Part shown: piece by piece, positions 12,701-60,298 of the stretch
How the letters are laid out: every line of letters starts with the position of its first letter
How positions within the stretch are numbered: position 1 is the stretch's first letter
From: Longimicrobiales bacterium
Lineage (GTDB): Bacteria > Gemmatimonadota > Gemmatimonadetes > Longimicrobiales > Gaopeijiaceae
Assembly (NCBI GenBank): GCA_965202805.1
Contig: OZ241869.1
Span: 3,200,001 to 3,264,000 of the forward strand
Reading direction: 5' to 3'
Length of the DNA: 64,000 nucleotides
Notes under the pieces: generated by a model
Database searches by the model: none
Told to the model about the DNA's origin: nothing
Seen by the model: the letters and a program-made list of their open reading frames with translations, nothing else
Made by a program: the position numbers and the translations under genes

Positions 12701-12741
12701 ACGGCCCTCGCCCGCCGACCCCCAGGACGGAGGGAGAGACG

Positions 12742-15500: not shown

Positions 15501-15618
15501 TTACGTAAGGGTCAAGGTGTACCGAGACACGTCACATGCCATAAGTTGGGGGGACGACCGCTCGGCTGGACGGCGCGATCGCGGAACCTGAGGAGTCGCG
15601 GACTCGGAGGGAGGAGCC

Positions 15619-26692: not shown

Positions 26693-26721
26693 ATTCTAGC
26701 CGGGGGTGTGAAGGGGGTCAA
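26693..26721 (-). promoter_or_regulatory. sigma70-type promoter for the riboswitch-btuB operon
   Basis: TTGACC-17 nt-TAGAAT on the minus strand immediately 5' of the riboswitch. Confidence 0.75.
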
Positions 26722-28252
26722 CGGTGGGAATGCCCGGTTCGTGCGGATCTGCGGCGAAGGCGCGCTCTATGGCAGATTCGATGGCAGCCACTTCGCCATC
26801 GCTCAGCTCGCGAAAACGGGGGCGCTTTCTCGCGGAGAGCCGTCCTCCGTTCTGCACGCAGAGCCGTATGAGCAGCGAGGTGCGCCGGTCGGGCATGTCC
26901 ACGATCTCCGAAACCGCTCTGAAGGCTTGATCAAAGCCGGCGATGAAACCGAGTTCTTCCCGAAGATCGTGACGGACCGTCTCGGCCACTCGGTCGTGAA
27001 GGTATTCGGCAAACGCGGTCATATCGATGAACCGATAGAGATCGCGGGTGTCGCCTTCCACCAGCAGGTCTCTGTTCAGACCCCATCGCCAGTCGATGAA
27101 TTCCAGGATCGGCCGGGAGAAACTCTCGAGCACCCGATCGTAGCCGTGACGATCGCGCAGAATGGCCGCGGACACCGGAAAGATGAAGTTCGTGGGCGTG
27201 TATCTCCTCGAAGCGAGCACGTGATGGACGAGGAACCGGTGAATGCGGCCGTTTCCGTCCTCGAAGGGATGAACGAAGACGAAGGCGAAGGCCGAAACCG
27301 CCGCGCCGACGAAGGGCGGAACGCTCTCGTGCGAGACGCGCGCGGTGAGGTTCATCCAACCCTTCATGAGCGAGGGCACGTCGGCTGGCCGGGGGCATAC
27401 GAAGTGGACCTCTTCCCGGAAGCCCGCACCCGTCCGGCCGACGAAATTCTGAACGTCGCGCCAGTCCGTGGCGGCATAGCGCGGGTCGACGATCGACCCT
27501 TGAAGCCGGACCAGCGCATCCTTGACCAGCGGGTTGAAGGTGGCCGCTTCACTAAGCGCGCGCACGAAGCGAGCAGCACGACGGGAAGACGGCTTCTCGC
27601 CTTCGATCGCAAAGGAGGACCGCGTTTCCCTGGTGTACAGATAGTCGACCGCGCGGGTGAGAAGGCTCCGGTCGAAGGCTTCGCAGAGAGCACGCGCCTC
27701 GTCGTCCAGGCGCATCGCCATCTGGCGCAGAAGCTTCGGGGTCCGCCGGACCGTCACACAGAGGCCGGGTCCGCCGAGCAGGTTGTCGATGACGCGGTGC
27801 CGCCGGGAATTGCGGCGCTCGGCGACGATGAATCTCTCTGGATCGAGTGCCTCAACGTAGTTGCCGCTACGAACGTTTTCGAGATCCAGGACATGTCCCG
27901 TAAACGTTTCATAGAAGAACCAGGCACGGCGGCTGTACGCGCCCGTGGGCTCGCTCCTGACCCAATCTTCCAACGTTGCGGGATCGATGGTCTTGAGGGC
28001 GGCGGCCAGCACTCCGAGATCGAAAGGCTCGCGACGAAGCATGAAGCGCAGGTGAGACACGACCGAATCGCCGGGGGCGTATTGCCGGGGATAGCTTTCG
28101 ACCACGCGAGAACCGTGTACTTCCGTCCGCCTTGTTCCGGAGACCAGGTAACTCTCCACGGCTGGCTGGGGGACGGCCAGGTCTAACTCGCGGCGGAGCC
28201 ATGCTTGCCCCACAGGTGTTCTTTTTTGATTCATCGAAAGCTCCCCAGGCAT
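26696..28252 (-). CDS. Fic family protein
   Basis: Canonical HPFEDGNGRIHR motif; ETRSSFAIEGE. Alternative start ATG 28234. Confidence 0.92.
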   Translation of the reverse strand: MPGELSMNQKRTPVGQAWLRRELDLAVPQPAVESYLVSGTRRTEVHGSRVVESYPRQYAPGDSVVSHLRFMLRREPFDLGVLAAALKTIDPATLEDWVRSEPTGAYSRRAWFFYETFTGHVLDLENVRSGNYVEALDPERFIVAERRNSRRHRVIDNLLGGPGLCVTVRRTPKLLRQMAMRLDDEARALCEAFDRSLLTRAVDYLYTRETRSSFAIEGEKPSSRRAARFVRALSEAATFNPLVKDALVRLQGSIVDPRYAATDWRDVQNFVGRTGAGFREEVHFVCPRPADVPSLMKGWMNLTARVSHESVPPFVGAAVSAFAFVFVHPFEDGNGRIHRFLVHHVLASRRYTPTNFIFPVSAAILRDRHGYDRVLESFSRPILEFIDWRWGLNRDLLVEGDTRDLYRFIDMTAFAEYLHDRVAETVRHDLREELGFIAGFDQAFRAVSEIVDMPDRRTSLLIRLCVQNGGRLSARKRPRFRELSDGEVAAIESAIERAFAADPHEPGIPTVDPLHTPG

Positions 28253-38879: not shown

Positions 38880-39272
38880 ATGAACGTGTTCCCCCTCGAG
38901 ACCCTGGACCGCGAGGCCTCCGACCCGGTCAACTTCACCGGCCCCGGGAGCCTGCGCCGCATCGAAGGCGCCCTCCCCGCCGATCCCCGGGTCAACGTCT
39001 ACCGCGTGCATTTCGAGGCCCGCTCGCGCACCAACTGGCACACGCACAGCGGCCATCAGATGCTCTTCGTCGTGGAGGGCCGCTGCCGCTACCAGAAGGA
39101 AGGGGAAGCCGTCGGGGAAGCCGGACCGGGAGACCTCATCGTGGTGGAGCCGGGCGAGAACCACTGGCACGGCGCCGCTCCCGGCGGAGCGATGACGCAC
39201 ATCGCGCTCAACGTGAACGCGGTGACCAGCTGGGGGGACCCGGTGAGCGAGGACGAATACGATGCAGGGTAG
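38880..39272 (+). CDS. Cupin domain protein
   Basis: RTNWHTH..GHQML, PGENHWHGA, MTHIA. Confidence 0.88.
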   Translation: MNVFPLETLDREASDPVNFTGPGSLRRIEGALPADPRVNVYRVHFEARSRTNWHTHSGHQMLFVVEGRCRYQKEGEAVGEAGPGDLIVVEPGENHWHGAAPGGAMTHIALNVNAVTSWGDPVSEDEYDAG

Positions 39273-39282
39273 GGAGGGTAGG

Positions 39283-39570
39283 ATGGTCCGGATCCAGAGG
39301 GCCTTCCGGCGTCTGAGGAGAGGCCTGCGCGAGGCGCGCGAGATCTACGAGGGCATCTACTTTGCCCCCTACCGCTCCCAGATCTATCGAGCATACCGTG
39401 AGGAGCGGGACACCTTCCTGCTGCTGGGGTTCGCGGATCTGCTGGGAGCCCCGAACCCGGTCGCCTTCTATGCCCTCGAGATCTATCCCGACGTGATCGA
39501 GGAATTCCATCAGTGGCACGTGCGCATCGGCATGCCCAGCTCTCCGGATGGTGGCTTCAGATGCTGCTGA
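39283..39570 (+). CDS. cory-CC-star-like small protein
   Basis: GGGAGG RBS; LLGAPNP..FY.LE.YP....EFHQWH.R.GM, ending GFRCC-stop; adjacent to the ArsA gene. Confidence 0.8.
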   Translation: MVRIQRAFRRLRRGLREAREIYEGIYFAPYRSQIYRAYREERDTFLLLGFADLLGAPNPVAFYALEIYPDVIEEFHQWHVRIGMPSSPDGGFRCC

Positions 39571-39721
39571 GACCGGGCGCGGGGATACCGCCGGGATCGC
39601 GCACGGCGTCCAACGCCAGCCGTCTCGGCGTTCGGGTCGCGGTGCGCGTCCGGCCCGGGCAGGACCGGGCTTCCGGCCGTGACGGAGACAGGCCCGTGGC
39701 GCGGGCGTTCGATCCGAGTCC

Positions 39722-40705
39722 GTGACCAGGCCGCGCCGCATTCTCGACCGCGAGGTCGTCTTCTTCGGGGGCAAGGGCGGGGTCGGCAAGACCACCCTGG
39801 CCGCCACCATGGCGCTCGAGGCCGCGCGCGAGGGGCACCGCACGCTCCTGGTCTCCACCGATCCCGCGCACTCGACCTCGGACGTGCTCGAAACCCGACT
39901 CGGAGGCGAGGCCCGGGAGGTGCGCCCGCGGCTGTGGGCGCTCGAGATCGATCCCGCGGAGGAAGCCGACCGCTACATCGACGACGTGAAGGCACGCATC
40001 GCCGACAGCACCCCGCCGCGTCTGATGGCGGAGGTCGAGCGCCAGATCGACATCGCACGCGTGACGCCCGGCGCCGAGGAATCCGCGCTGTTCGACCGCT
40101 TCACCCGGATTGCCGAGGAGGCCGGGCACGTGTACGACCGCCTGATCTTCGACACCGCTCCGCTGGGCCACACGCTCCGCCTGCTCGCACTCCCCGAGCT
40201 GATGGGCGCCTGGATCAGCGGCCTCATCTCGCGGCGCAGGAAGGTCAACGTGCTCGGGCGCATGTGGCGGAACGTGGCGGGGGCGGCCGCGGGCGCCGAG
40301 GATGCCGGCGAAGATCCGGTGCTCGGCGCACTCACGGAACGCCAGACCCGCTTCCGCCATGCGCGTGCCCTGATCACGGACCCGCACCGCACCGGCTTCG
40401 TCTTCGTCGTGACCCCGGAGCATCTGCCCGTCGCCGAGACCGAGCGTTCGGTGAAGATGCTCGACAAGTACGGGATCCCGGTGGCCGCCATCTTTCTCAA
40501 TCAGGTGGTCCCCGAGGACGCGGACGGGGGGCTGCTGGCCTCGAGGCGCGCACGCCAGCGGGAGTACGCGCAACGGGTGCGGAAGAGTTTCTCCGCATAT
40601 CCGGTTCACGCCGTACCTCTGTTGGACGGCCGACTGCACGGGCTGGAGGCATTGCAGCGCCTCGCGCGGGCGTTGCCGATGTCGGAGCGGGGGGGTGTGA
40701 GTTAA
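39722..40705 (+). CDS. ArsA/GET3-family ATPase (single domain)
   Basis: GGKGGVGKTT, STDPAHS, DTAPLGHTLRLL. Confidence 0.92.
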   Translation: MTRPRRILDREVVFFGGKGGVGKTTLAATMALEAAREGHRTLLVSTDPAHSTSDVLETRLGGEAREVRPRLWALEIDPAEEADRYIDDVKARIADSTPPRLMAEVERQIDIARVTPGAEESALFDRFTRIAEEAGHVYDRLIFDTAPLGHTLRLLALPELMGAWISGLISRRRKVNVLGRMWRNVAGAAAGAEDAGEDPVLGALTERQTRFRHARALITDPHRTGFVFVVTPEHLPVAETERSVKMLDKYGIPVAAIFLNQVVPEDADGGLLASRRARQREYAQRVRKSFSAYPVHAVPLLDGRLHGLEALQRLARALPMSERGGVS

Positions 40706-40829
40706 CTCGGAGGAGGCGCTGGGAGAGGTGCTCCTTGCGGTACAAGAGGGCATCATATGATACTTGACGGGAGGAAATGACCGAGAATCGGAGCATTCAT
40801 GAAACGCATGTCTCATATGGCGGGCACCC

Positions 40830-41213
40830 ATGAGCCGTCCAACGAGCTCGATCCAGGATGACGAGCATGGGAACTACCCCGAGATACGGCGTCAGATGAT
40901 CGCGCTGATCCGGAACCGGAGGCGGAAGGCCAACTTTACCCGCCGGCGACCGACGGACATCCGGCCCAGGGAATTCATGAACCCGGAGACAGGTTACCGG
41001 TTGTCGCGCCAGGGGATGTGGGCGGAAGTCGTACGGCTGCTCGAAACAGGCGTACCGCTCAGGAGGGTGGCGCTTCAGCAGCCAGCCGGCGAGGTGGCTT
41101 GGGATTTTGTCGCCGAGCTTTGGCCCGGCCAGCCCTTCCTGTACGTGAAACTCCAGATTCTCGGCTCGACGATCCGCCTGAGAAGCTTCCATCCCAGCGA
41201 GGTGAACCGATGA
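40830..41213 (+). CDS. MqsR-like (RelE-fold) toxin
   Basis: C-terminal LYVKLQI....IRLRSFH typical of MqsR-like proteins; ATGA overlap with the MqsA-like gene. Confidence 0.7.
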   Translation: MSRPTSSIQDDEHGNYPEIRRQMIALIRNRRRKANFTRRRPTDIRPREFMNPETGYRLSRQGMWAEVVRLLETGVPLRRVALQQPAGEVAWDFVAELWPGQPFLYVKLQILGSTIRLRSFHPSEVNR

Positions 41214-41827
41214 CCCAAGTTGCCTCTCCTCCGACCGTGCTCCGTGCCCATTCCGGGCCTCAGGCCCGCTGTGACGTGTGCGGAGCGATCAGCGTACAAA
41301 CGGAGTTGATGCGGGATCCCTTCATCTACGGTAGTGGTGCGAACGCCGTTGAGCTTACCGCCGATGTTTGGGTGCACACCTGCTCGGCGTGCGGGGATTC
41401 CTATACGGATGATGAGGCGGACGTCGCGTACGACGAGGCAGTTTGCCGACACTTGGGAGTCCTCACTCCCGCCGAGATTCGCGACATGCGCGAAGGATAT
41501 GGCCTCACCCGGGCCGAGTTCGCGCAACTGACCGGGTTCGGGAAGGCCACCGTGGGCCGTTGGGAACGCGGAGAGGTGACCCAGAATCGCTCGGCCGACC
41601 GCTATCTCAGGTTGCTCCAGGAGCCGGGGGTCATGCGACGGCTGCGGGCACTCGGCGAGGTAACGGATTCAGCCGGACTCCAGACGCCGGCCCGACCTCG
41701 GGTCTTTATATTCGACTGCATTCAGGTTTCGAGCCAGAGGGTTATCCGCGAGAATGCCCGGGGGTTGAACCCGGGGATATGGAAGGCGGACCCCGGCTTG
41801 GGCTTCGAGGCCGGCGCCGAAGCCTGA
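41210..41827 (+). CDS. mqsA: MqsA-family antitoxin (Zn finger + Xre HTH) with C-terminal extension
   Basis: CDVCG...CSACGD zinc finger; LTPAEIRDMREGYGLTRAEFAQLTGFGKATVGRWERG HTH; ~55-aa tail. Confidence 0.85.
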   Translation: MTQVASPPTVLRAHSGPQARCDVCGAISVQTELMRDPFIYGSGANAVELTADVWVHTCSACGDSYTDDEADVAYDEAVCRHLGVLTPAEIRDMREGYGLTRAEFAQLTGFGKATVGRWERGEVTQNRSADRYLRLLQEPGVMRRLRALGEVTDSAGLQTPARPRVFIFDCIQVSSQRVIRENARGLNPGIWKADPGLGFEAGAEA

Positions 41828-43821
41828 TGTACGTCACTACCTTCTACTCCTACAAGGGCGGCGTGGGTCGGACGCTCGCATTGGTCAACGTGGCCTACGA
41901 GCTCGCGGCATCCGGCCAGCGGGTCTTGGTGGTCGACTTCGACCTCGAGGCTCCGGCTATCCACTCCGGCACCTGGCGAGCGTCCGGGGAGGGACCGCGG
42001 CACGAAGAAGGCCGAGCGCACTCCAGGCATCCGGGCATCGTGGAGTACGTCGGGCGCTTCATCGACACGCTGCGCGGTCCGCGAGCAGAGGATCACATCG
42101 TCGACGCGACCCCGACGGGCTGTGCGGGCAAGATCGCGCTGATGCCGTCGGGTACGTTGAATGACGACTACGGAAGGCGACTGGGCGCGATCGACTGGAA
42201 TGAGTTGTACCTGAAGTACGACGGGTACGTGATGTTCGAGGATCTCCGCGAACAATGGCGGCTGCTCGGCTACGATTACGTGCTCCTGGACTCGCGCACC
42301 GGCGTCACTGATGTGGGCGGAATCTGCACGCGTCATCTTCCCGATGCGGTCGTCTTGATGTTCCGTCCGGACGACCAGAGCCTCCACGGTACGGCGGGCG
42401 TTGCCGGCGCCATTCGGAACGAACGTCCCGCTCCGGGGCGTGGCCGTGTGAGGCTTCACTTCGTGATGGCGGCGATTCCCGATGCCGACGACGAGGATGG
42501 GATCCTCGAAGATCTCCAAAGCAGGTTTCAGCGGCGATTGAACGTGCCGTCCGGCGAGCTCATCGAAATCAGAAACTATCAGAGCATGGACTTGCTCCGG
42601 CAGCCCATCTACACCGACAAGCGGCCGCGAACCCAATTGGCGAGATCATACCAGGGACTGACGAAACGCATTCGATCCGAGAATATTGATGATCGCGAGG
42701 GAGTCCTCGAGTGTATGCGGCGCATATACAGGGATATGGAGGGCACTCGGATCATGTTCGGATCCGACGCGGTTGCGGGATACTATTTTGAGGACGACCC
42801 GTTTGATTCTCATGCGGAAATGCGTGACCGGCTCGCCAAAATCGAGGAGCGGTACCCCGAGGACCCAGAGGTGCTTTTTGCATTGGCTTGCACCTACGGC
42901 AAGGCGCGCCAGAAGGGCCATGTCAAGAGGCTGTTGGATCGACGCTCCACCGCCACGGCGCTATCGCCCGACCACCTGATCAGGCTGGCAAGGGTGTTGG
43001 GTCCGCACACCTATGATGGAGCGGTGCGAGCCCTTGAGCTGTTCTTTCGAGAACAACATGCAGGCGTTCCCGGCGATGACGCGTTCCCGCTGGTGGAATC
43101 CGGCGTTCTCCTCCTGGAGAAGTTGGACAAGGACCGTGCCGGGTTCGTTGGCGGCAGTCCGATCGTGTCGCAGCTCTCGGCGTCTCAACAAGCGACGGTG
43201 GCGAGCCACTTGAAGCTGTCCCGGGGCGAACGAGCAATCGCGGTCGAACTCCTTGCGAACGCGCTTCAAGGCGCCGAAGGTTCCGGGCACGAAAAGAGCA
43301 ATTGGGAACGGGAACTGGCCTTCGCGCGAATCGCGGTGGGGAAGTTCGGGGAAGCTGCGGACTACTACCGATCCATCTCGACGGAGGACCCACCCTCCTT
43401 TCTTCCACAGGCGGCGGCCTTCTGCCTTGGCATGGCGACGTGGGGGGACACCGGAACGGCAAACCCGGATGACTTCCTGCGCGTGCTGACAGCTTATCGT
43501 GAGACGGACTTGGCAGGGTGGCAGGAAGGCCCCAGTGGTGAACTCGAGCGCAACATACTTGGTTGCATCGGCAATTGGCAGGCGATGTCGTTGGTCGAAT
43601 GGCTTGGAGGACGGTCCGATCACGCGCGCAGGCACCTGCGCGAAGCCGAAACGGAAGCCCAACACCTCCTGCAACGCCCTCTCGTTCCGTTTAGCTGCTG
43701 GTCCTACACGTGTGTTTCCGCGGAGACCTTTCTCGAGCACTGCCACGAGATCGGCCGTCTCTTCGATGGCTGCGACGTCAAGCCCGCGTTCATGAGGGAC
43801 GCGGAAAAAGGCGTAGCGTAG
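41827..43821 (+). CDS. ParA/MinD-like ATPase (KGGVGR variant) with helical/TPR-like C-terminal region
   Basis: TFYSYKGGVGRT, VDFDLEAP, YDYVLLDSRTG; TGATG overlap with mqsA; helical C-terminus (LAFARIAVGKFGEAADYYRS). Confidence 0.85.
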   Translation: MYVTTFYSYKGGVGRTLALVNVAYELAASGQRVLVVDFDLEAPAIHSGTWRASGEGPRHEEGRAHSRHPGIVEYVGRFIDTLRGPRAEDHIVDATPTGCAGKIALMPSGTLNDDYGRRLGAIDWNELYLKYDGYVMFEDLREQWRLLGYDYVLLDSRTGVTDVGGICTRHLPDAVVLMFRPDDQSLHGTAGVAGAIRNERPAPGRGRVRLHFVMAAIPDADDEDGILEDLQSRFQRRLNVPSGELIEIRNYQSMDLLRQPIYTDKRPRTQLARSYQGLTKRIRSENIDDREGVLECMRRIYRDMEGTRIMFGSDAVAGYYFEDDPFDSHAEMRDRLAKIEERYPEDPEVLFALACTYGKARQKGHVKRLLDRRSTATALSPDHLIRLARVLGPHTYDGAVRALELFFREQHAGVPGDDAFPLVESGVLLLEKLDKDRAGFVGGSPIVSQLSASQQATVASHLKLSRGERAIAVELLANALQGAEGSGHEKSNWERELAFARIAVGKFGEAADYYRSISTEDPPSFLPQAAAFCLGMATWGDTGTANPDDFLRVLTAYRETDLAGWQEGPSGELERNILGCIGNWQAMSLVEWLGGRSDHARRHLREAETEAQHLLQRPLVPFSCWSYTCVSAETFLEHCHEIGRLFDGCDVKPAFMRDAEKGVA

Positions 43822-43986
43822 GGCCCCGCGGATCCGAGCGCCGGGGCGCACCAGGCATGTGACCGCGTCCCGGCCCGGCAGCGCCGCGCTCCCCCGGTTG
43901 CCCGTCGCGGAGGCGGCAACGTAACATGGCCCTGTTCCGCGCTTCGGCAGGCTGACGAAGTGCGCATCGCTCCCGTCAGCACAAGG

Positions 43987-45765
43987 ATGGCATCCGTGAG
44001 TTCAATCGTACTCCTATTGATCGGATTGGCCGCGTTCGCCACCGGATACCGGGTCTATTCCCGGTACGTCGCGCAGAGGATCTACCGGCTCGACCCGGAC
44101 TTCCGAACACCGGCGCACGAGTTCGAGGACGGGGTGGACTTTCTGCCCACCAACCGCAACGTCCTCTTCGGCCACCACTTCACCTCGGTGGCGGGGGCGG
44201 CGCCCATCGTTGGGCCGGCGATCGCGGTCATCTGGGGGTGGTTGCCCGCGTTCCTGTGGGTGGTGCTGGGGACGATCTTCGCGGGCGCGGTGCACGACTT
44301 CGGCACTCTCTGGATCTCGACCCGGCACAAGGCCAACTCCATCGGCACGCTCGCCGGCAAGATCGTGGGGGACCGCGGCCGGGTGCTCTTCATGCTCGTG
44401 ATCTTCTTCCTGCTGCTGCTGGTGAACGCGGTCTTCGCGGTCGTCATCTCCAACCTGTTCATCGGCAACCCGGGCGCGGTGCTCCCGGTCTGGGGCAGCC
44501 TGGTGGTCGCGATCACGGTGGGCTTCCTGATCTACCGCTCGGGCGCCGGGCTGCTGTGGCCGTCTCTGGGCGCGCTGGCGGTGCTCTACTTCCTGATCTG
44601 GGTGGGCCAGTCCGTTCCGCTCCAGCTTCCCGACTTCTTCGGCTTCGACCCGACGCCCGCTCAGATCGCGGCGGCCGGAGGCGACCAGGCGGCGGCAGCG
44701 GCGGCGGCTACCACCGACGGCGTGCGCGCCGGGTGGGTCATCGTCCTCTTCGTGTACGCCTTCTTCGCCAGTGTGCTGCCAGTCTGGCTCCTGCTCCAGC
44801 CGCGCGACTACGTCAACAGCCACCAGCTCTTCGTGGCGCTCGGCATCATCGGGCTCGGGATCATCTTCACCAACGCCCCAGTGGTGGCGCCCGCCGTCAA
44901 TACGAATCTGCCACCCGATACGCCCAACTGGTTCCCGCTCCTCTTTGTTACCATCGCCTGCGGCGCGATCAGCGGTTTCCACGGACTGGTGTCGTCCGGG
45001 ACGTCGTCCAAACAGCTCGACAAGGAGACGGACGCTCGCTACGTGGGCTACGGGGGTGCGGTCGGCGAGGGCTCACTGGCTCTCACCTCGATTCTGGCGA
45101 CCACCGCCGGTTTCGCGGTCGTGGTGGGGGTGGACGGCTGGCACGACCACTACGGATCGTTTGCTTCGGCGTCGGCGGGCGCAACCCAGGCGTTCGTCCA
45201 GGGCGTGGGAGTCCTGGCGCAGGGGATCGGCATCCCCCAGGGCCTCGCGGTCACCTTCGCCGCCGTGGTGGTCATCAGCTTTGCCGCCACCACCATGGAC
45301 ACCGGGGTGCGTCTGCAGCGCTACATCATCTCCGAACTGGGGGCCGAGTACAAGATCAAGCTGGCCCAGAACCGCTGGATCGCGACCACGCTCGCCGTAT
45401 CCAGTTGCGCCCTGCTGGCGCTGGGGGTGGACCGGGGCGCCGGGGGCATGCGTCTCTGGCCGCTGTTCGGCACCACGAACCAGCTCACCGGGGCCATGAG
45501 CCTGCTGGTGATCAGCCTCTTCCTCTACAGCCTCAAGCGGAGGATCTGGGTGACGGTGATGCCGCTGGCCTTCCTGCTGGTGATGACGACCTGGGCCATG
45601 GTGATCAACATGATCGGCTACTGGACCAGCGAGACCTGGCTCCTGTTCGGGGTTGGAGGCGCGATCTTCGTGCTGGTGCTCTGGCTGGTGTTCGAGGCGC
45701 TGGCGGCGATCCGGCTGGCGATGTCCGCGAGCGGGCCCGGGGCTCCGGCGCGTCACGGCCCATGA
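43987..45765 (+). CDS. cstA: Carbon starvation protein A family transporter
   Basis: LFGHHFTSVAGAAPIVGP, LLQPRDY, IACGAISGFH, WPLFGTTNQL. Confidence 0.93.
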   Translation: MASVSSIVLLLIGLAAFATGYRVYSRYVAQRIYRLDPDFRTPAHEFEDGVDFLPTNRNVLFGHHFTSVAGAAPIVGPAIAVIWGWLPAFLWVVLGTIFAGAVHDFGTLWISTRHKANSIGTLAGKIVGDRGRVLFMLVIFFLLLLVNAVFAVVISNLFIGNPGAVLPVWGSLVVAITVGFLIYRSGAGLLWPSLGALAVLYFLIWVGQSVPLQLPDFFGFDPTPAQIAAAGGDQAAAAAAATTDGVRAGWVIVLFVYAFFASVLPVWLLLQPRDYVNSHQLFVALGIIGLGIIFTNAPVVAPAVNTNLPPDTPNWFPLLFVTIACGAISGFHGLVSSGTSSKQLDKETDARYVGYGGAVGEGSLALTSILATTAGFAVVVGVDGWHDHYGSFASASAGATQAFVQGVGVLAQGIGIPQGLAVTFAAVVVISFAATTMDTGVRLQRYIISELGAEYKIKLAQNRWIATTLAVSSCALLALGVDRGAGGMRLWPLFGTTNQLTGAMSLLVISLFLYSLKRRIWVTVMPLAFLLVMTTWAMVINMIGYWTSETWLLFGVGGAIFVLVLWLVFEALAAIRLAMSASGPGAPARHGP

Positions 45766-50265: not shown

Positions 50266-53200
50266 GTGAGCCAATCTCCTTCGAAACGCAGCGTCGTGCG
50301 TGGCGCCGCAGCGCTGATCGTGCTTTGGACCGCGGCATGCGGCGATGGCGGTACAGGACCGCCGCCGCCGGCTCCGAACCGGGCACCTCTGGCAAGCGGC
50401 TCGATCTCGCCTCAAACGGTAGCCGCAGGGCAGACAGTCATGGTGAACGTGGCGAGCTACTTCACCGATCCGGACGGAGACGCCTTGACGTTCACCGCGG
50501 AGAGTTCGAATTCCGCAACCGCATCCGTTTCGATGTCCGGCAGCGTTGTGACAGTGACCGCGGCCGCACGGGGAGTGGCGATCGTAACGGTTAGAGCCCG
50601 AGACGCAGGCGGCATGTCGGCACAGTTGACGTTTACCGTCACCGTGCCGAATCAGGCCCCGGTCGCAGTGGATGCTGTCCCGGCACAATCCATCTTCGTC
50701 GGGGACACAGCTTCCGTGGATGTATCGGCGTACTTCAATGACCCGGACGGAGATGCGCTGAGCTATTCGGTGGCGAACTCGGACGCGACGGTGGTCTCGG
50801 CATCGGTCGCCGGGAGCGTGGTTTCGCTGACAGCGATCACGCAGGGGATGTCCACGGTCACGGTGACCGCTCGCGATCCTGACGGGCTGTCGGCAGAGCA
50901 GAGCATCGCGGTCACGGTACCCAATCGGGCGCCGACTGCTCTCGACACCATCCCATCCAGGATCCTCTGGACGAGGAATACTCTGGAGTTCGACCTGGCG
51001 CGCTACTTCACCGACCCGGACGGAGATGCCCTGATTTTCACGGCGGCCAGCGCCCACGCCGGGGTGGCTTCCGTTGAATTAGTCGGCAGCACCCTGACAA
51101 TCACCGGGCGGGCGCCCGGCAGCACGAGGGTGACGGTAACGGTGGCCGACCCCGCGGGGATGTCCATTCAACAGTTTTTCGCCGTGACGGTGCCGAATCG
51201 GGAACCGCTTGCGATCGGCGCCATTCCGGGACAGTCGGTGGTGTCCGGGCAAACGGCCACCATCGACGCGTCCCCGTTCTTTAGCGAACCCGACGAACAG
51301 ACGCTGAGCTATGCCGCAGCGAGCTCCAACAGGGGCGTCGCGACCACTGCGGTTGCCGGCGCTACGGTGACGCTGACGGGAGTGTCGGTCGGGACCGCGA
51401 GCATCACCATCTCGGCGACGGATCCGGGCGGGCTGACGGCTCAGCAGCGCTTTTCCGTGACGGTGCGGGCGGCCAATGACGCTCCCGAAGTTGTGTCGAC
51501 CATTCCCGATCTGACCGTGACCGTCGGCGAGGTGCGCGCATGGCAGGGAGCAGACCACTTCCGCGACCCCAACGGCGATGCGCTGACGTACGCGGCGGGC
51601 AGCTCCAACGCAGCAGTTGTCCTGGCTGTGGTGTCGGGTGGTGAATTCGGCATCGGTGCGGTGTCGGCCGGATCGGCGGTTGTGACGGTGACCGCCAGCG
51701 ACCCTGGAGGCTTGAGCGCGCAGTTGAGCTTCCGGGTCACGGTGGGAACACCCGCGCCGGTCGTGATTACCGGGATCGAGCCAAGCGTGCTGGTCGAGGG
51801 AGCGTCCGCGAGGATCACCGGATCCGGATTCTCTGCCACTGCAACTCAGAACCAAGTTTCTGTTGGCGGGCTCAGCGCGAGAGTCACTTCAGCCAGCGCG
51901 ACGAGCTTGTCGTTCGTGGTCCCTTGGAGCGACTGCCTACCACCACGCAGGGATGACTTGCGGGTTTCGGTGGGGAGCCAGAGCGATGCTCGTACGGTGG
52001 CGGTGACACCGCGGACGCGTGAGGACTTGGAGCTGGAACTAGGCTGGTATCGATGGACGTATGCCGGTAACGGGTGCATCCATCTTCCTGGAGACGCTGC
52101 CGGGCAGGATTACCTGATCGGTGTTGTGTCCAGTACCGAGAATCCGGCGTCACTCACCGGCGTTACGCTGACGGGCACCCCCGGAGACGCCACGGTGGTC
52201 GGAGCTGAAGGCGGTCGCATCGTCGTTGCAGCAGAGAGCGGGGCGCTCGGAGAAGTCAGTCCGAGCGCAATGGCTGCTTTGGCTCAAGGGCCGTTCCGAG
52301 CTACGGCCGCGTTCGACAGAGGATCGTTCCGACGGCAGGCGGCACCTCCGATGGCCAACGGCTCTCAGGAATGGCCCCTCGCTGACGACACCCTGCGCAT
52401 GCGTCGAGTGCGGGCACACAACGAGATTATGGCCCGCAACGAAGCACTGCTGCGAAAGCTGGGGCCCGCGACTCGCCCCGCGTCGGTAGCCGTCCGCCGC
52501 GAACTGCGAGTTGGGGATACGCTGCGTCTTTATGCCGAAACCGGGGCGACGTGCACGAGCCGTGGGCAAATTCGGGCCGTAGTGCGGCTTGTCGGCAACA
52601 GGTCGATCTGGCTCGACGACCTTGACAATCCCACCGAGACTTTCACCGACTCGGAGTTAGCGAATCTGGATGCATTCTACTCGACCACCATCAAGGATGT
52701 TCACGACGACTACTTCGGTGGACTATCGGATTTGGACGGCAACAATCGTTTTCTGGTGCTGATGACCAAGGAGGCAAATCGTGCTGATTTGGGGGGATGG
52801 GTTTGGTCAGGCGACCTGTATCCCAGTTCTGCATGCGCGACGAGCAACCAAGCGGAAATCTTCTTCGGCAGGGTGCCAGATCCGCGAGGCTCCGTTGGAG
52901 ACACGGTTACCAAGCAGCAAGTGCTCGACTCGTACCCTGCGCTAATCGCGCATGAAGTTACGCACATCATCCAGTTTGGCTCGTGGATCTCCAGCGGTAC
53001 CGGTCGGAAGACTACATGGGAATTGGAGGGGGGTGCGACCTTGGCCGAGCAACTCGTCGGCTACCGTCTCTTCGGGCACGGCTCTGGGCAGGAACTCGAC
53101 CGGGATGCGCTTTCGCTATGGCAGGAGAGGAAACATTGGTACGGGGACTGGTTCTCTGAGATGGCTCTGTTCTTCGGATGGGACTATCGCGGCGATGGGA

Positions 53201-53757
53201 CTGGAAGAATCTCCGGTGCCCCGGAGGAGTGCAGTTGGGTCGGTACGCCGGACGAAGGAAACTCGGGTCCTTGCCTGCTGGGTGGTCGAGAAGTCTACGG
53301 GGTCCCCTCGATGGTCCTTCGCTACGCGATGGACCGCTGGGGTGGCGATTACCCCGGGGGCGAGCGTGCTTTGATGCGGCGCCTCACCCAATCCCCGACG
53401 CGAGGTTTCGCATCCCTGGTCGATGTCAGCCCCGAAAGATCCTGGCGATCCGAGCAGATCCTCACCGACTTCTACATCACGCTATGGATTGACCTGCAAG
53501 GCTGGGAAGCATATGGCATGACCAGTTGGGACCTGCACGACATCTTCACCCATCTGCGAGAGAGCTCGCGCCTCCAACCCTACACCTCCTCCTCACCCGC
53601 CCCCCGCCTCACCGGTCGCCGTGTGCGGGCGGGCTCGTCCCTGTATTTCCACTGGACGCCGACCGGTGCGCTCCGCCCGACCAGCATCAAGGTCACGTCG
53701 CCGGGCGGAGGACGGTTGCCCGATCACATCTCCGTGTGGGCGCTGCGGGTGCGTTAG
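50266..53757 (+). CDS. Surface lipoprotein: five tandem Ig-like repeats, IPT/TIG-like domain and C-terminal zinc metallopeptidase-like domain
   Basis: Lipobox TAAC; repeats begin NRAP/NQAP/NRAP/NREP/NDAP with F.DPDGD.L.Y; AHEVTH...WELEG (HExxH plus E). Confidence 0.85.
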   Translation: MSQSPSKRSVVRGAAALIVLWTAACGDGGTGPPPPAPNRAPLASGSISPQTVAAGQTVMVNVASYFTDPDGDALTFTAESSNSATASVSMSGSVVTVTAAARGVAIVTVRARDAGGMSAQLTFTVTVPNQAPVAVDAVPAQSIFVGDTASVDVSAYFNDPDGDALSYSVANSDATVVSASVAGSVVSLTAITQGMSTVTVTARDPDGLSAEQSIAVTVPNRAPTALDTIPSRILWTRNTLEFDLARYFTDPDGDALIFTAASAHAGVASVELVGSTLTITGRAPGSTRVTVTVADPAGMSIQQFFAVTVPNREPLAIGAIPGQSVVSGQTATIDASPFFSEPDEQTLSYAAASSNRGVATTAVAGATVTLTGVSVGTASITISATDPGGLTAQQRFSVTVRAANDAPEVVSTIPDLTVTVGEVRAWQGADHFRDPNGDALTYAAGSSNAAVVLAVVSGGEFGIGAVSAGSAVVTVTASDPGGLSAQLSFRVTVGTPAPVVITGIEPSVLVEGASARITGSGFSATATQNQVSVGGLSARVTSASATSLSFVVPWSDCLPPRRDDLRVSVGSQSDARTVAVTPRTREDLELELGWYRWTYAGNGCIHLPGDAAGQDYLIGVVSSTENPASLTGVTLTGTPGDATVVGAEGGRIVVAAESGALGEVSPSAMAALAQGPFRATAAFDRGSFRRQAAPPMANGSQEWPLADDTLRMRRVRAHNEIMARNEALLRKLGPATRPASVAVRRELRVGDTLRLYAETGATCTSRGQIRAVVRLVGNRSIWLDDLDNPTETFTDSELANLDAFYSTTIKDVHDDYFGGLSDLDGNNRFLVLMTKEANRADLGGWVWSGDLYPSSACATSNQAEIFFGRVPDPRGSVGDTVTKQQVLDSYPALIAHEVTHIIQFGSWISSGTGRKTTWELEGGATLAEQLVGYRLFGHGSGQELDRDALSLWQERKHWYGDWFSEMALFFGWDYRGDGTGRISGAPEECSWVGTPDEGNSGPCLLGGREVYGVPSMVLRYAMDRWGGDYPGGERALMRRLTQSPTRGFASLVDVSPERSWRSEQILTDFYITLWIDLQGWEAYGMTSWDLHDIFTHLRESSRLQPYTSSSPAPRLTGRRVRAGSSLYFHWTPTGALRPTSIKVTSPGGGRLPDHISVWALRVR

Positions 53758-53881
53758 CCGGGACGACGCCGCGCGACAGGTTGTTGCCGTGAGCAGCGTG
53801 ATACTACTCGAGCATTTGGCATGATACTACTACTCGGCGCACACCCGAAGGGGTCAAAGCGCGTTTTGGCGCATCGGCGAG

Positions 53882-54120
53882 TCAAGACGGCGTCTCGATG
53901 CCGGTCTCGGATGCCGCCGCGACGAAGTGACGCACGTTCCAGATGATGATGGTCGGTGCGGTTGCCCTTCGGCGGGCATGCGGCGATGAGCATGTCGTAG
54001 GTCTGTCCGCCAATCACTTCCGGCCGTTGAGCCCTGCGTAGAGCGCGCCAAGTCTCGACTGCTGTCAGCTGTGCGACCGGCATCTCGCGCCAGCTGGCCT
54101 CCAGAACCGCGATGACGTCC
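53882..54120 (-). pseudogene. VapC/PIN toxin remnant (C-terminal half, frameshifted)
   Basis: GGQTYDMLIAAC, then a frameshift to TIIIWNVRHF...ETPS-stop; N-terminus missing. Confidence 0.7.
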
Positions 54121-54260
54121 AGTACCCAGTAGCGTACACCCCCGAATTGCCACAGCTCCAGCGCCCCCGTCTCGTCGGTGAGCGGGGGCGCTGAAGCGCG
54201 ATCTGCGGGCCGTCAGGGGGATCATCCGCCGGGGCCCGGCCGCCGGCGGTCACATCCGGG

Positions 54261-55898
54261 CTACGGCTGCTTCACGAAGGTGGGCGTCTTGTAGTACCCG
54301 ATCTCCTCACCGAGCATCACATGGCCGACCAGGCGGTAGGTGCCCGGCGGGTACCTGTCTTCGTCGATGTTGATGGGGCAGACCGAGCCCGCCGGATTTG
54401 TCGGGTTGTAAGTTGCAGCGCCTTGATGGGCCTTGTTGTTGTCCTGGGCGACGACCCATCCACTTCCAGCCAAGCGCTGCCACTCCGACCAGAACACGGT
54501 GAAGTTGATGCCGCCGACCGGGAAGTCGCCAATCTGGAGGCAGATGGTGAGCGGGCGGGGCGGCGCGCCCGCGGTGATCTCGGCCAGAAGCACCCCGTCC
54601 TCGCTCACCGAGATTCCGGGTAAACTGTCGTACTCCTCCTGGTGCACCCGCACCGCGATGGAGTCCTGGGTGACCGACAACCCGTCCTCGTTCGTGGCAG
54701 TCACCGACAGGATGGCCACGCTGACGCTGTCCTCGACGGCGCCCGTGCCCGTCGTGGTCACCGTGCTGCCTTCCACCGAAGCCACGGCCACCGTTTCGTC
54801 GGAGGTCGTGGCCGCGTAGGTCAGCTCGCCGTCCTCCTCGAAGTACGGCGACACGTCGAGCACCACCATGCTGTCCACGATCATGTCGTGGGTGGGGATC
54901 GTGTCGATGATCTCGGGTGGCACGGGGGGCGGCGTGACGGTCACGCCGAACTCCAGGCTGGCCGAGAGCATGCCCGCATCCGACGCGGTCACGGTAACGG
55001 TGGCGTTGCCCGGTGCTACGCCCGTGACGGTCACCACGGCGCCCTCGGTCGCGACGGTCGCCGCCGCCTCATCCGAGCTGGCCGCCGAGTAGGTGAGTTC
55101 GTCGCCGTCGGGGTCGCTGAAGTTGGCGGTCACGTCCACCGTCGCCTCGCTGCCCGCGACCACGGTCACGTCGTCGATGGTGCCTTCCGCCATGGGAGGC
55201 TCGTTGGCTTCGGTGACGGTGACGCCGAACTCCTGTGTCGCCGAGAGCTCGCCCGGGTCGGTGGCGGTCACGGTCACGGTAGCGCTTCCCGCGCCGACGG
55301 CCGTGATGGTCACCATGGCGCCCTCGGTCGCCACGGTCGCCACCGTGGTATCCGAGCTGGTGGCGGTGTAGGTGAGCTCGTCGCCGTCGGGGTCGCTGAA
55401 GTTGGCGGATACGTCCACCGTCGCCTCATCGCCCACGACCAGGCCCTGGTCGTCGATGGTGCCTTCCGCCATGGGCGCCTGGTTGGCGGCCTCGACCGTC
55501 ACGCTGATGCTCTGGGTTGCCGACAGCCCGCCCGGGTCGCTCGCCGTCACCGTCACGGTCGCGGATCCCGCCCCTACCCCCTCGATGCTCACCTCGCTGC
55601 CGGATACCGAAGCCGTGGCCACAGCCTCGTCGGAAGTCGCCGCCGCAAAGGAGAGCGTGTTGCCGTCCGGGTCCGTGAAGTTCGAGGCCACGTTGACCGA
55701 AACGCTCTCCCCGACCAGGACCGTCTGCGCCGCGATGCTGCCCGTGGCTGTGGGCGCGCGATTCGCGGGTGGCGGAGGTGTGGGGGGCGTCGGCGGCGTG
55801 GTGGTCGGTTCGGTTCCGCCGTCACCTCCGCATGTGGCCACCCCCAGGGCGGCTCCCGACACGATCGAAAACAGGGCCAAGGCTCGGATTACTCGCAT
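54261..55898 (-). CDS. Lipoprotein with four tandem Ig-like repeats and an unknown C-terminal domain
   Basis: Lipobox-like VATC; NRAP/NQAP/NEPP/VPP repeats with NFSDPDGDELTY; repeats 2 and 3 are highly similar at DNA level (279-bp period). Confidence 0.85.
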   Translation of the reverse strand: MRVIRALALFSIVSGAALGVATCGGDGGTEPTTTPPTPPTPPPPANRAPTATGSIAAQTVLVGESVSVNVASNFTDPDGNTLSFAAATSDEAVATASVSGSEVSIEGVGAGSATVTVTASDPGGLSATQSISVTVEAANQAPMAEGTIDDQGLVVGDEATVDVSANFSDPDGDELTYTATSSDTTVATVATEGAMVTITAVGAGSATVTVTATDPGELSATQEFGVTVTEANEPPMAEGTIDDVTVVAGSEATVDVTANFSDPDGDELTYSAASSDEAAATVATEGAVVTVTGVAPGNATVTVTASDAGMLSASLEFGVTVTPPPVPPEIIDTIPTHDMIVDSMVVLDVSPYFEEDGELTYAATTSDETVAVASVEGSTVTTTGTGAVEDSVSVAILSVTATNEDGLSVTQDSIAVRVHQEEYDSLPGISVSEDGVLLAEITAGAPPRPLTICLQIGDFPVGGINFTVFWSEWQRLAGSGWVVAQDNNKAHQGAATYNPTNPAGSVCPINIDEDRYPPGTYRLVGHVMLGEEIGYYKTPTFVKQP

Positions 55899-56053
55899 TT
55901 TGCGCGTGCTCCGGTTGGAGTGGTGAGCGCCGGATCTCCGCCGGGCGCCGGCCGCCACACATCAGGATCCTTCGGCGTGACGAGCCCGATTACTTCGCAA
56001 GGCTATGGCATGCGCGCAGAGCACGCAACGCGAGCGGAACCGGCTCCCTCGGC

Positions 56054-58906
56054 CTACCGTCCCCTCCGCGACCCCCTCCGGTTCATCGGTGTGCCCAGCC
56101 GGTACATCACCCGGAGCATGAAGTACTGCCCGAGCGAGTCCGTCCGCGACTCCTCGATGTAGTTTGCCGAATTGGTGATCGCGACGCCCTGGTTCTGGTT
56201 CAGGAGGTCGTAGGCCCGCAGCTCGATCTCGGCGCGTTCGTCGAGCACCCGCCGGGAGATGGCGGCATCCCAGCGCGCGACGTTGCGCGCCTCCCCGAAG
56301 AGTCCCTGGTCGAAGACACGGTGGCGGAAATCCGATTCCAGGGTCCAGGCGTTGTCGATGTGCCAGGTGGCTTCCGCGCGGTACTGGCTGTTGACGTAGC
56401 CGCGGTCGAGCTCATGGTTCAGCGAGTACGCGACGTCGTTGAAGTTGAAGCTGACAGAGGCGCGCACGTCCAGCCGGTCCTTCTCCCGGTTGTCCAACCC
56501 GATCTCGAGCGAGTTGCGCAGGATGCGGCTCTCGTTGGCCGTGTGGTTCACGAGCTCCGTCCCCTCGGAATAGCTGACGTCGTATTCGAGCTCGACATCG
56601 ATGCCCAGCCTCCGGACCGGGGTGTCGAAGTTGGCTCCCAGGCTGCCGGACCACTCGCCGCTGGTGTTGACCGGCATCCGCGTCTGAAAGCCGCGCTCGT
56701 CGAAAACCCGCGACATCGAGATGTTGTTGTCGGTGTAGGTGAAGCGGGTGAAGGTGCGGAGGTTGATGAAGGTCACCTCGTCGAACAGACGGAAATCGGC
56801 GTTGACGCGGTGCCTGTATTCCGGGCGCAGATCCGGGTTCCCGGAGTAGATGTTGAGGGGATCGGTGTTGTCGGCGTAGGGCTGGAGCTGCGTCAGCGAC
56901 GGCTCGCGGCTCGAGCCCTCGTAGCGGAGCTGGAGCGTCTGCCCTTCCTTGATCTCCTTCTTCAGCCGCGCGTTGCCGAGCAGGTGCGTGTAGCCGTTGG
57001 CGATGGACTCGTTCCGGCCCAGGATGACGCCGTCGAGGTTGGATCTCTGCACGCGGAGCCCGACCGTGAACCAGGAGTCGTCGGTATTCCGGCTGTAGCG
57101 GGTACCGCCCTGAAGATAGGTGTAGGCCCGTTCGAATCCCGAGCTCATGCGGGGGTTGTGGACGAGGGTGCCGTCGACGCGATCGTAGACCGCGTTGTTG
57201 CGGTCCTGGTGGGTCGCGTTGCGCTGGCCGAAGAGCTCGATCGTGTGCCCCTCCGCGAGCGGCTGCGTGAGCGAGAGGCGCGCCGAGTTGGTCCGGGTCC
57301 ACCCCACGCGCGAGTGGTCCTGCAGGATCTCGCGCACATCGTCGACATCGTCTTCGCCGTCCCTGGTGCGCCTCTCCCCGGTAACCAGCGAGGACAGGTC
57401 GGCGGAGACGTCGGAGTCCTCGAGGTCGCTCGTCAGCTCCGCGACGAGGCTGCGGCCCTCCTCGTTCAGGCGCTTGCGCCAGGTGAGCCGTCCGTCCCCG
57501 CCCAGCTCGTTCCCGTCCACCAGGTAGTCGGTGGTGGCGGAATTGAGCATGTCCCCGCCGAGGGTATGCGTCTGCCGATTGGCGATCGAGGTGAGCGACG
57601 ACGCGCGCGCGTTCCCTCTCACGCGTACCCGCAGCCCATGCCCCTCCGAGAATTCGACCTGCCCGTTCAGGTCCAGGCGATGACTCACATTGCCGGCTTC
57701 CTGTTTGCTGGTCTGGTCGACCAGCGACGCGACATCCGATCCGAAGAGGGCCCGCTGCTGCAGGCTGCGGTCCTGGAGATTGTCCAGCTGGCGGATGGTG
57801 TAGCTGCCCCGCAGCCAGGTCTCCTCGCTGAATTCCCGGCTTCCGTTGACCCCGAGGCTCATCGTCTCGGTAAGACCGTCGCTCGACCTCCCGCCCCGTC
57901 CACCCGGCATGCCGGCGGCGAGATTCGGGAAACCACTGCGGGAGCGTCCCTGGTTCACGTTGTTGGCGTTCGCGGTCAGGGCAAGCTGGACGGTGGGCGA
58001 GAAGCGATTCAGGGAAAGCGAACCGTTGTAGCGCGCTTCGGCGCCCACGGGCGCGGTAAGCCGGGCCCGGCTGCCCCCGTCGCCGCCGACGTCGCCCCTG
58101 GCGCGGCCGAAGTACCCGCTCCTCGCCTCCTCCTTGAGCTTCAGGTTGATCGTGCGCTCCTCTTCGCCGTCGGGAATGCCCGTGAACTCGGCCATGTCCG
58201 ACTCCTTGTCGTACACGGCGATCTGTTCGATGGCGTCCGCGGGCAGATTCTCCATCGCGACCGACGGGTCGTCGCCGAAGAACTCCTTGCCGTCCACGAG
58301 GATCTTCGCGACCGCTTCGCCCTGTGCCGTGATCGACCCGTCGGCGTCGACGTCGATCCCGGGAAGCCGCCGCAACAGCTCCTCGACGGTCGCGTTGGGG
58401 GGCGTCGGAAACGCCTGCACGTTGTAGCTGAAGGTGTCGCGCTGATTCACGAAGGGGACGTGTTCCACGCTGACCACCACCGAGTCCACTTCCAGCGCCG
58501 TCACCGCCAGCGCCACCCTGCCGGCGTCCACGTGCGTGTTCGCGACCTCGAAGTCGCGGCGCAGGGTCCGGTAGCCGATCAGCGTGACCTGGAGGATGTA
58601 GCCGCCCGCCGGCAGGCCCTCGATGGTGAAGCGTCCGTCCTGAGAGCTCAGCGTATACTCGGCCAGCACCGAGTCGGGTCTCGTGAGCGCGACCACCATG
58701 GCGTTGTGCAGCGCCGCGCCCATCGAGTCGGTGACGATCCCGCGCACATGGTACTCCGCGGGTGCCTGCGCGTGCGCGAACGTGGCCTGCGAGAGCACGA
58801 CCGCGACCTGCGAGAGCACGGCCATCACCAGAAAGGCAGGAACCCGGCCTCCGACGGTGAATCGGTGCCGGGCTCCTGCCCATTCCTGCTTCATCTTCCT
58901 GTCCAC
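56054..58906 (-). CDS. TonB-dependent-receptor-like outer-membrane beta-barrel protein with N-terminal carboxypeptidase-regulatory-like domain
   Basis: VEELLRRLPGIDVD, ILVDGKEFFGDDP, INLKLKE, GNPDLRPE, YFMLRVMY. Confidence 0.85.
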   Translation of the reverse strand: MDRKMKQEWAGARHRFTVGGRVPAFLVMAVLSQVAVVLSQATFAHAQAPAEYHVRGIVTDSMGAALHNAMVVALTRPDSVLAEYTLSSQDGRFTIEGLPAGGYILQVTLIGYRTLRRDFEVANTHVDAGRVALAVTALEVDSVVVSVEHVPFVNQRDTFSYNVQAFPTPPNATVEELLRRLPGIDVDADGSITAQGEAVAKILVDGKEFFGDDPSVAMENLPADAIEQIAVYDKESDMAEFTGIPDGEEERTINLKLKEEARSGYFGRARGDVGGDGGSRARLTAPVGAEARYNGSLSLNRFSPTVQLALTANANNVNQGRSRSGFPNLAAGMPGGRGGRSSDGLTETMSLGVNGSREFSEETWLRGSYTIRQLDNLQDRSLQQRALFGSDVASLVDQTSKQEAGNVSHRLDLNGQVEFSEGHGLRVRVRGNARASSLTSIANRQTHTLGGDMLNSATTDYLVDGNELGGDGRLTWRKRLNEEGRSLVAELTSDLEDSDVSADLSSLVTGERRTRDGEDDVDDVREILQDHSRVGWTRTNSARLSLTQPLAEGHTIELFGQRNATHQDRNNAVYDRVDGTLVHNPRMSSGFERAYTYLQGGTRYSRNTDDSWFTVGLRVQRSNLDGVILGRNESIANGYTHLLGNARLKKEIKEGQTLQLRYEGSSREPSLTQLQPYADNTDPLNIYSGNPDLRPEYRHRVNADFRLFDEVTFINLRTFTRFTYTDNNISMSRVFDERGFQTRMPVNTSGEWSGSLGANFDTPVRRLGIDVELEYDVSYSEGTELVNHTANESRILRNSLEIGLDNREKDRLDVRASVSFNFNDVAYSLNHELDRGYVNSQYRAEATWHIDNAWTLESDFRHRVFDQGLFGEARNVARWDAAISRRVLDERAEIELRAYDLLNQNQGVAITNSANYIEESRTDSLGQYFMLRVMYRLGTPMNRRGSRRGR

Positions 58907-59957: not shown

Positions 59958-60062
59958 GTGGCCACGGTTGCGCGCCACAGATCGTTGCCCGCAGGGTACG
60001 TTCGGACCGCGCTGAGGCTCATCGGCGACCTTGAACAGTTGAAACAGGGACACCCTCCATGA
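59958..60062 (+). pseudogene. HicA toxin remnant (C-terminal part only)
   Basis: ATVARHRSLPAGYVRTALRLIGDLEQLK resembles a HicA C-terminus; its stop overlaps the hicB ATG; an in-frame stop lies upstream at 59901. Confidence 0.55.
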
Positions 60063-60298
60063 AGGACGTTGAGTACTACGCAGGGCTCTCCTACCAGGAA
60101 GACGTGAGAATGGAGGATTGTACCGACGGTACCCGGTGCTACTTCGCGCGCGTCGCCGAGTTGCCCGGGTGCGAGAGTCACGGAGACACTGCGCAGGAGG
60201 CGTTGCGGAATCTGCAAGAGGCGAAGCGTCTCTTCATCGAGACCTTGCTGGAGAACGGGGTGAGACCTTCCGAGCCGTTCTCCGTCCAAGTGCCGTAA
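60059..60298 (+). CDS. hicB: HicB-family antitoxin
   Basis: YFARVAELPGCESHGDTAQEALRNLQEA signature. Confidence 0.88.
   Translation: MKDVEYYAGLSYQEDVRMEDCTDGTRCYFARVAELPGCESHGDTAQEALRNLQEAKRLFIETLLENGVRPSEPFSVQVP

Follow-up and report, generated by a model that had tools for sequence, protein, structure and literature searches.

The closest described relatives of the locus considered here are the TA-ParA systems of Li, Burroughs and Aravind, a computational prediction in which a type II toxin–antitoxin (TA) pair, with MqsR–MqsA among those named, is joined to a ParA–TPR protein (bioRxiv 10.64898/2026.10.19.760177). Its main text posits a ternary complex, a sensor-driven switch and cell death triggered by an invader, and sets the theme apart from the toxin–antitoxin–chaperone (TAC) systems (bioRxiv 10.64898/2026.10.19.760177). 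The locus is an MqsR–MqsA–ParA triplet in a 64,000-nt stretch of contig OZ241869.1 (positions 3,200,001 to 3,264,000) from a Longimicrobiales bacterium of the Gemmatimonadota; this whole stretch is referred to as the window. Since the main text of the preprint already describes this architecture, the triplet is regarded as a member of the predicted class. Its three genes form a conserved unit, and the antitoxin has a C-terminal tail that accompanies the third gene. The parts of the triplet are:

40830–41213, forward strand: gene 1, MqsR-fold toxin (127 aa); predicted RNase of a family without a Pfam model, from structural model, profile comparison and conservation
41210–41827, forward strand: gene 2, MqsA-family antitoxin (205 aa)
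41210–41653, forward strand: antitoxin core (residues 1–148), CxxC–CxxC zinc domain and XRE helix-turn-helix (HTH), by TIGR03830 and PF15731
41654–41827, forward strand: antitoxin C-terminal tail (residues 149–205, 57 aa) with variable linker, motif 1, degenerate motif 2 and Ala-rich end
41827–43821, forward strand: gene 3, ParA-type ATPase with repeat domain (664 aa)
41827–42696, forward strand: ParA/MinD-fold NTPase domain (residues 1–290), by NF047398 and a MinD structure match
42697–43821, forward strand: helical repeat (TPR-like) domain (residues 291–664), all-helical in the model, predicted sensor

Comparison with described systems

As described in the main text of the preprint, the BECR-toxin subtype of TA-ParA shares with the triplet the linkage of type II TA genes to a third ParA gene, a BECR RNase toxin (of MqsR fold here) with an HTH antitoxin, a ConB2 ParA with arginine in place of the Walker A lysine (KGGVGRT here), and a C-terminal sensor domain, usually of TPRs, to which a helical stack corresponds in the model of gene 3. 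The two-aromatic-motif tail, the repeat-less loci and the palindromic operator-like site described below do not appear in that text. It contains no antitoxin tail, chaperone-addiction domain (ChAD) or operator (the single use of "tail" is for that of phages; figures and supplements may list the family), and repeat-less variants are absent from its sections 10, 12, 24, 26 and 41. No experimental study of the triplet system or of the tail was found in a literature search that did not cover subscription journals.

The TAC systems (MqsRAC, HigBAC and CmdTAC) likewise have an MqsR/MqsA-type pair, an aromatic C-terminal extension of the antitoxin alongside a third gene, and frequent AA or VA ends. 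However, the third gene here encodes a 664-aa NTPase with repeats instead of a SecB-like protein, and the tail motif is kept across phyla, whereas ChADs are reported to be highly variable (PMC5105189). Escherichia coli MqsRA shares the toxin fold, an equivalent of Tyr81, the zinc-HTH antitoxin and the toxin-first gene order, but toxin identity is 11–16%, Lys96 is replaced by histidine, no lysine is conserved at the Lys56 position and the antitoxin is tailed. TIR-ParA and the PADLOC candidate PDC-M28B have the same KGGVGR ParA domain. In TIR-ParA it is likewise coupled to the gene just upstream, which encodes a TIR protein. PDC-M28B matches gene 3 over residues 4–231 only, and a search for a paper on it found none.

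Conservation and distribution of the triplet

Four of the 172 loci at which conservation was followed come from relatives; the other 168 are the best 80 of 594, the best 80 of 581 and eight of eight candidates of three collection scans. Of the 82 full-length ATPase homologues, 79 have 700 nt or more of flank, and in every one of these the gene directly upstream is MqsA-like; the toxin family precedes MqsA at 72 of the 76 loci with at least 1100 nt upstream. Approached from the toxin side, a profile search of 401 genomes gave seven matches in six genomes, each followed by MqsA and ParA. The sequence-only reading of this DNA had proposed a tripartite unit with mqsRA upstream of the ATPase, and these counts show such a unit to be conserved; chance juxtaposition of the three genes is ruled out by the MqsA linkage.

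The same reading had counted ATPase homologues without mqsRA against the linkage. Distant KGGVGR ATPases without mqsRA do exist (33 of the 82 partial gene 3 matches with enough flank); they belong to other subfamilies and so do not refute it for this family. MqsA precedes the remaining 49 of these partial matches, often with other small toxin-like genes. Upstream open reading frames (ORFs) of the mqsRA-less partial matches were scanned in 27 of 35 cases, and 19 encode TIR proteins. The TIR proteins encoded ahead of other KGGVGR ParA genes also end in a Pro-rich tail, in which a short hydrophobic or RPRL motif immediately precedes the ATPase start; docking by a C-terminal peptide may be a general trait of this ParA branch. 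In at least three further clades, ParA-linked MqsA is accompanied by small toxin-like genes of other kinds, with ends such as HxHxTGxPPLP or SxHP; 16 of 17 such genes scanned have no Pfam match.

The record titles of triplet holders name Gemmatimonadota, Acidobacteriota, Pseudomonadota, Planctomycetota, Binatota, Spirochaetota and others. Among named homologues, the nearest come from Candidatus Palauibacter and other Gemmatimonadota. Several of the holders are metagenomes of sponges, so the host is probably a sponge-associated member of the Gemmatimonadota. Full-length gene 3 occurs in three of 61 relatives. Eight of 72,556 plasmid records match it, four of them across 80% or more of its length, and the two plasmids inspected (NZ_CP006879 of Rhizobium gallicum R602 and NZ_CP051687 of Massilia forsythiae GN2-R2) carry all three genes. 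The triplet is present at four of eight loci on IMG/VR viral contigs, and gene 3 has no match among 50,697 GenBank phage records.

The MqsR-fold toxin

Gene 1 has no match in Pfam, PADLOC or the PDB sequences, an NCBIfam search likewise gave nothing usable, and the MqsR model PF15723 matches none of 53 toxin-family members; the neighbour cluster of gene 1 in the Atlas is 17% PF15723 (score 0.92). The best structural match of its model (pLDDT 91) is E. coli MqsR (3hi2_D; Z 9.6, root-mean-square deviation (rmsd) 2.5, 90 aligned), the sole chain with Z of at least 8 among 48,161, with RelE-family chains next. Foldseek gave a probability of 0.98 but an E-value of 0.11, while hhalign of the toxin family against five canonical MqsR-like proteins gave 80% probability (E 1.4e-5). 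The earlier naming of gene 1 as MqsR holds for fold and profile comparison and fails for sequence-family matching; on the structural model, gene 1 is a predicted toxin of MqsR fold.

No substitution of Y105, K107, F120 or H121 is seen in the 53 toxin sequences, and R118 is nearly invariant; these conserved residues lie at the sheet where MqsR has its active site. By profile alignment via five MqsR-like intermediates, Tyr81 of E. coli MqsR aligns with Y105, kept in 53 of 53, and Lys96 aligns with the invariant H121. E. coli MqsR is reported to require both Tyr81 and Lys56 (PMC9636575). Since just one of these two residues is kept, RNase activity of gene 1 is likely, though not certain.

The antitoxin, its tail and the ParA-type ATPase

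Gene 2 scores above the MqsA cut-offs of TIGR03830 (76.3 vs 61.8 bits) and PF15731 (41.9 vs 30), the family profile matches the MqsA structures 2kz8 and 3gn5, and the four zinc-domain cysteines are invariant in the family. The sequence-only reading had noted a tail of about 55 aa with a hydrophobic VFIFDCIQV patch. The tail is there (57 aa), with the patch at residues 165–173, but the patch is this copy's variant of a family motif, F-R-x-[LI] (motif 1, here F168-x-x-I171), and a later [FWY]-x-L is the better conserved. Across 78 full-length loci, the tail has a helix-like, basic stretch in addition to F-R-x-[LI] and [FWY]-x-[LP]. The phenylalanine of motif 1 is found in 55 of 77 tails, [FWY]-x-[LP] within the last 25 residues in 73 of 78 (15% of background ORFs), and an AA end in 17 of 78 (1.5% of background ORFs). 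In TAC antitoxins, AA and VA ends are described as ClpXP degrons (10.1101/2024.02.24.581848). The tail is 39% identical to that of the orthologue in the relative G006, with cores at 85–93%.

Gene 3 is above the cut-off of the KGGVGR family NF047398 (139 vs 90 bits), with Walker A KGGVGRT at 41854–41874, sensor D37-F-D39 and Walker B D155. Residues 1–290 match MinD (4v02_A; Z 23.2, rmsd 2.6, 229 aligned). The ParA-domain motifs are nearly invariant in 53 sequences, R15 being present in 52, and the PG motif after sensor-1, kept in 47 of the 53, is PA in this copy. From residue 290 the model (pLDDT 87.8) has about 17 stacked helices, for which Pfam TPR matches are weak and under cut-off; the description of gene 3 as a KGGVGR ParA/MinD ATPase with a TPR-like region proved right. 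The repeat domain evolves fast: the mean top-residue fraction is 0.36 vs 0.63 in the ParA domain, and identity to the G006 orthologue is 40% vs 86%.

Association of the tail with the third gene

Tail length was counted from the residue following the HTH "RWE". In the 127 ParA-linked antitoxins for which it could be taken (four others were unmeasurable), the tail is never shorter than 53 aa and has a median of 74. An independent sample was drawn from within the phylum and comprised 30 of its 48 TIGR03830 matches, of which 15 were left out of the tail comparison, 12 from a toxin-less zinc-HTH family and three partial HTH matches in long ORFs. The remaining antitoxins extend 66–89 aa past "RWE" when ParA-linked (n = 5), 83–103 aa when SecB-linked (n = 3) and 28–64 aa with no third gene (n = 7, six at or below 43), so that the claimed association of tail and third gene was upheld. 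The toxin-less zinc-HTH family (12 loci, L240–L255) scores near the TIGR03830 cut-off and has low-complexity ends and housekeeping contexts. Three SecB-type MqsRAC systems were seen in the same phylum (L229, L230 and L232).

L236, an antitoxin that a quick tree places within the ParA-linked clade (clade support 94), is tail-less, and such an ATPase was not found in its single-contig genome. At seven loci the ParA protein lacks the repeat domain (278–346 aa) and the tail is kept, four of them with an intact toxin. Since the tail persists in these repeat-less loci, the ParA domain is its likely partner; judged from sequence, the loci fit addiction. The tail patterns are what would be expected if the tailed antitoxin depended on the ParA domain, and do not themselves prove contact. 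No SecB (PF02556) was found in this 98%-complete genome, where ClpX is present. On that ground, a tail serving as ChAD for a SecB encoded elsewhere was rejected, and together with the conserved triplet the same result supports the earlier idea that a ParA/repeat protein stands in place of the SecB of TAC.

Operator-like palindromes

Two sites lie upstream of gene 1:

40752–40761, no strand: perfect palindrome ATCATATGAT, predicted operator for the antitoxin HTH dimer
40812–40821, no strand: second, degenerate operator-like site CTCATATGGC, with a perfect core in the G006 orthologue

The first 10-mer is a single copy in the 4.02-Mb genome. Within 250 nt upstream of the toxin, TCRWWYGA is present at 78 of 83 loci, mostly as the same palindrome, compared with a mean of 4.2 and a maximum of 10 in mononucleotide shuffles and 5 of 76 downstream; many loci have two sites about 40–70 nt apart. 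In fixed upstream windows it was seen at three of 25 ParA-linked loci that lack this toxin and at none of ten two-gene or SecB-linked relatives. TCRWWYGA is likely to be the operator of this antitoxin clade. No sigma-70 promoter consensus was found.

Proposed mechanism and alternatives

The favoured model, held with a little less than even confidence, is that the three genes, which form one conserved operon, act as an infection-triggered toxin switch, with the tail docked on the ParA domain; the preprint proposes the same logic of switching (bioRxiv 10.64898/2026.10.19.760177). By analogy with E. coli MqsA, the zinc domain would neutralise the toxin and the HTH dimer would repress the operon at ATCATATGAT. 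The two aromatic motifs of the tail would bind nucleotide-loaded ParA, in a role like that of ChAD for SecB, and ParA would stabilise the antitoxin and hold the MqsR-fold RNase inactive for as long as the repeats sense no phage cue. A ligand on the variable repeats would then flip the ParA switch and release the tail; the released antitoxin would be degraded or aggregate, with ClpXP as the likely route where the end is Ala-Ala, and the toxin would cut RNA and abort the infection. More tentatively, and with real doubt, the tail can be read as an "ATPase-addiction" tag, ParA having independently taken SecB's job as a nucleotide-gated holder of the antitoxin. So read, an exchangeable repeat sensor would be wired to a swappable TA warhead via a short peptide, as with the partner peptides of MinE and ParB.

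Several observations weigh against the favoured model. In the toxin, the column of MqsR Lys56 is variable, with R78 here and glutamate in 28 of 53 sequences. In this copy of the tail, motif 2 is degenerate (G185-L-N-P) and the end is EA instead of AA; AA ends are in any case not specific, since tail-less antitoxins have them too. A relative seen in sequencing run X5 has a different first tail half (41654–41743) and an almost identical ATPase, so the first tail half is not allele-specific. The control without a third gene consists of seven proteins from a single phylum, and decay may account for the repeat-less loci, two of which have no detectable toxin. The window copy lies outside any defence island, inserted in a housekeeping operon. 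Among the neighbours scanned (130 of 295 ORFs at 34 of 78 loci, with our own gene caller), 18 of 130 have PADLOC matches at E ≤ 1e-10, some of them generic, vs 8 of 139 control genes, and the Fisher p of 0.037 is overstated because neighbours are non-independent and the controls come from this one genome. Several loci adjoin DISARM, CRISPR-Cas, type I restriction–modification or SIR2 genes. The defence-island enrichment is modest, and support for a defence role, by analogy, is moderate.

In the alternative nearest to the wording of the TA-ParA preprint's main text, gene 3 would act as an activator: the pair would be quiet alone, the tail would be a handle, and the ParA switch would separate the pair on infection. 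This is unlikely, since an activator could be freely lost, yet a tailed antitoxin with this toxin family was not seen without ParA (7/7), and ParA is retained where the repeats are lost. TPR grooves bind C-terminal peptides. The tail might accordingly sit in the groove of the repeat domain, a phage protein competing for it while ParA merely oligomerises or times the response; as a precedent, phage gpV is reported to compete with ChAD on HigC (10.1101/2024.02.24.581848). Between this genome and G006 the tail and repeats are both only about 40% identical, and their divergence is correlated (partial rho 0.40, p 0.025, 31 disjoint pairs). However, synonymous sites correlate alike with the repeats (rho 0.42) and the tail motif alone does not (rho 0.02, 24 pairs), so that the correlation is probably a rate effect, and the seven repeat-less loci still have tails; groove binding is quite unlikely. 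Across these two alternatives and the favoured model together, a role in defence is probable.

A selfish or stress-related addiction cassette with no part in phage defence is very unlikely. In this reading the ATPase would make release of the toxin depend on dilution or nucleotide state, thereby stabilising the cassette or its plasmid, which suits the lone insertion in a housekeeping operon, the plasmid copies in Rhizobium and Massilia and the weak defence-island signal. Addiction, however, needs no fast-evolving repeat domain of 370 aa, and the patchy spread (three of 61 relatives), the defence-gene neighbours and the anti-phage activity reported from tests of MqsRAC and HigBAC also stand against it. 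It is highly improbable that ParA is itself the effector, as a multimer coating invading DNA, with MqsRA mainly its transcriptional regulator and the RNase weak or dead. The preprint's main text does posit a multimeric ParA effector in other systems, and both the variable Lys56 position and the two loci without detectable toxin would agree with it, but the invariant and near-invariant toxin residues at the active-site sheet would be hard to account for, and other clades substitute different small toxin-like genes instead of dropping the slot.

The locus and its insertion site

As the sequence-only reading had described, the three genes overlap at their stop and start codons (ATGA at 41210, TGATG at 41825), all on the forward strand, in DNA of lower GC content than its surroundings. 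The triplet has 62.4% GC vs 68.4% for the genome, which places it in the lowest 3.7% of windows of the same length, and GC at third codon positions is 0.73–0.78 vs 0.88–0.91 in arsA and cstA. The flanks were also correctly named, with an ArsA/GET3-family gene on one side and cstA on the other. Comparison with genus genomes delimits the insertion:

40690–43895, no strand: inserted cassette, approximate extent, with boundaries set by eye

The terminal codons of arsA are replaced by the cassette, behind which lies a degraded copy of the 3′ end of that gene (about 43897–43924), and no integrase was found within the cassette. In 13 of 15 genus genomes with an arsA match, cstA follows arsA at 67–91 nt; among the 15, only this genome and G006 have the triplet between them. 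The cassette is accessory and patchily inserted. Contigs from public sequencing runs reproduce the locus, which is therefore not an assembly artefact: in run X2, from the same study as the best holder and possibly not independent, two overlapping contigs cover it with zero mismatches, and in run X5, from a different study, it lies in one 7,983-nt contig. No RNA run is listed among the holders, which carries no information on expression.

A second complete triplet is present in the same genome (G000:C1:2694505-2697314; identities of 52, 52 and 46% for genes 1–3), surrounded by HipA, ParD, Phd and NucS genes. It has its own palindrome and a tail ending in AA; compared with a copy in genome G013, its ParA is 99% identical and its repeats 84%. 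A functional tie of the triplet to arsA and cstA was rejected, as the second copy and the copies of relatives sit elsewhere.

Other features of the window

The flanking genes belong to a genus-conserved cluster arranged as CC-star, arsA, cstA (39262–40705 and 43960–45765), encoding a Cory-CC-star protein, an ArsA-family ATPase and CstA; in two genomes of the taxonomic order cstA instead lies upstream. A separate defence or mobile island at 1006–16354 contains an Eco57I-type methylase (6537–10541), a PLD-SNF2 helicase (3271–6537), a Schlafen/AlbA protein, a phage integrase and an MNT-HEPN pair, as well as ORFs without a Pfam match at 1006–1569 and 1809–3179. Large Ig/cadherin-repeat surface proteins occupy 50266–58906, where GC is locally lower. 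A Fic protein is encoded at 26699–28252 and a HicB-like gene lies at 60059–60295.

Significance

As far as its main text goes, TA-ParA has so far been a prediction from gene neighbourhoods, in which no link between ATPase and antitoxin is stated. The tail motif, the palindrome and the natural deletion variants make such a link concretely and cheaply testable, and complete copies are available on plasmids of harmless, cultured bacteria. If the tail is indeed a ParA-dependent stability tag, a family of chromosome-segregation ATPases would have converged on the chaperone-addiction logic of the TAC systems.

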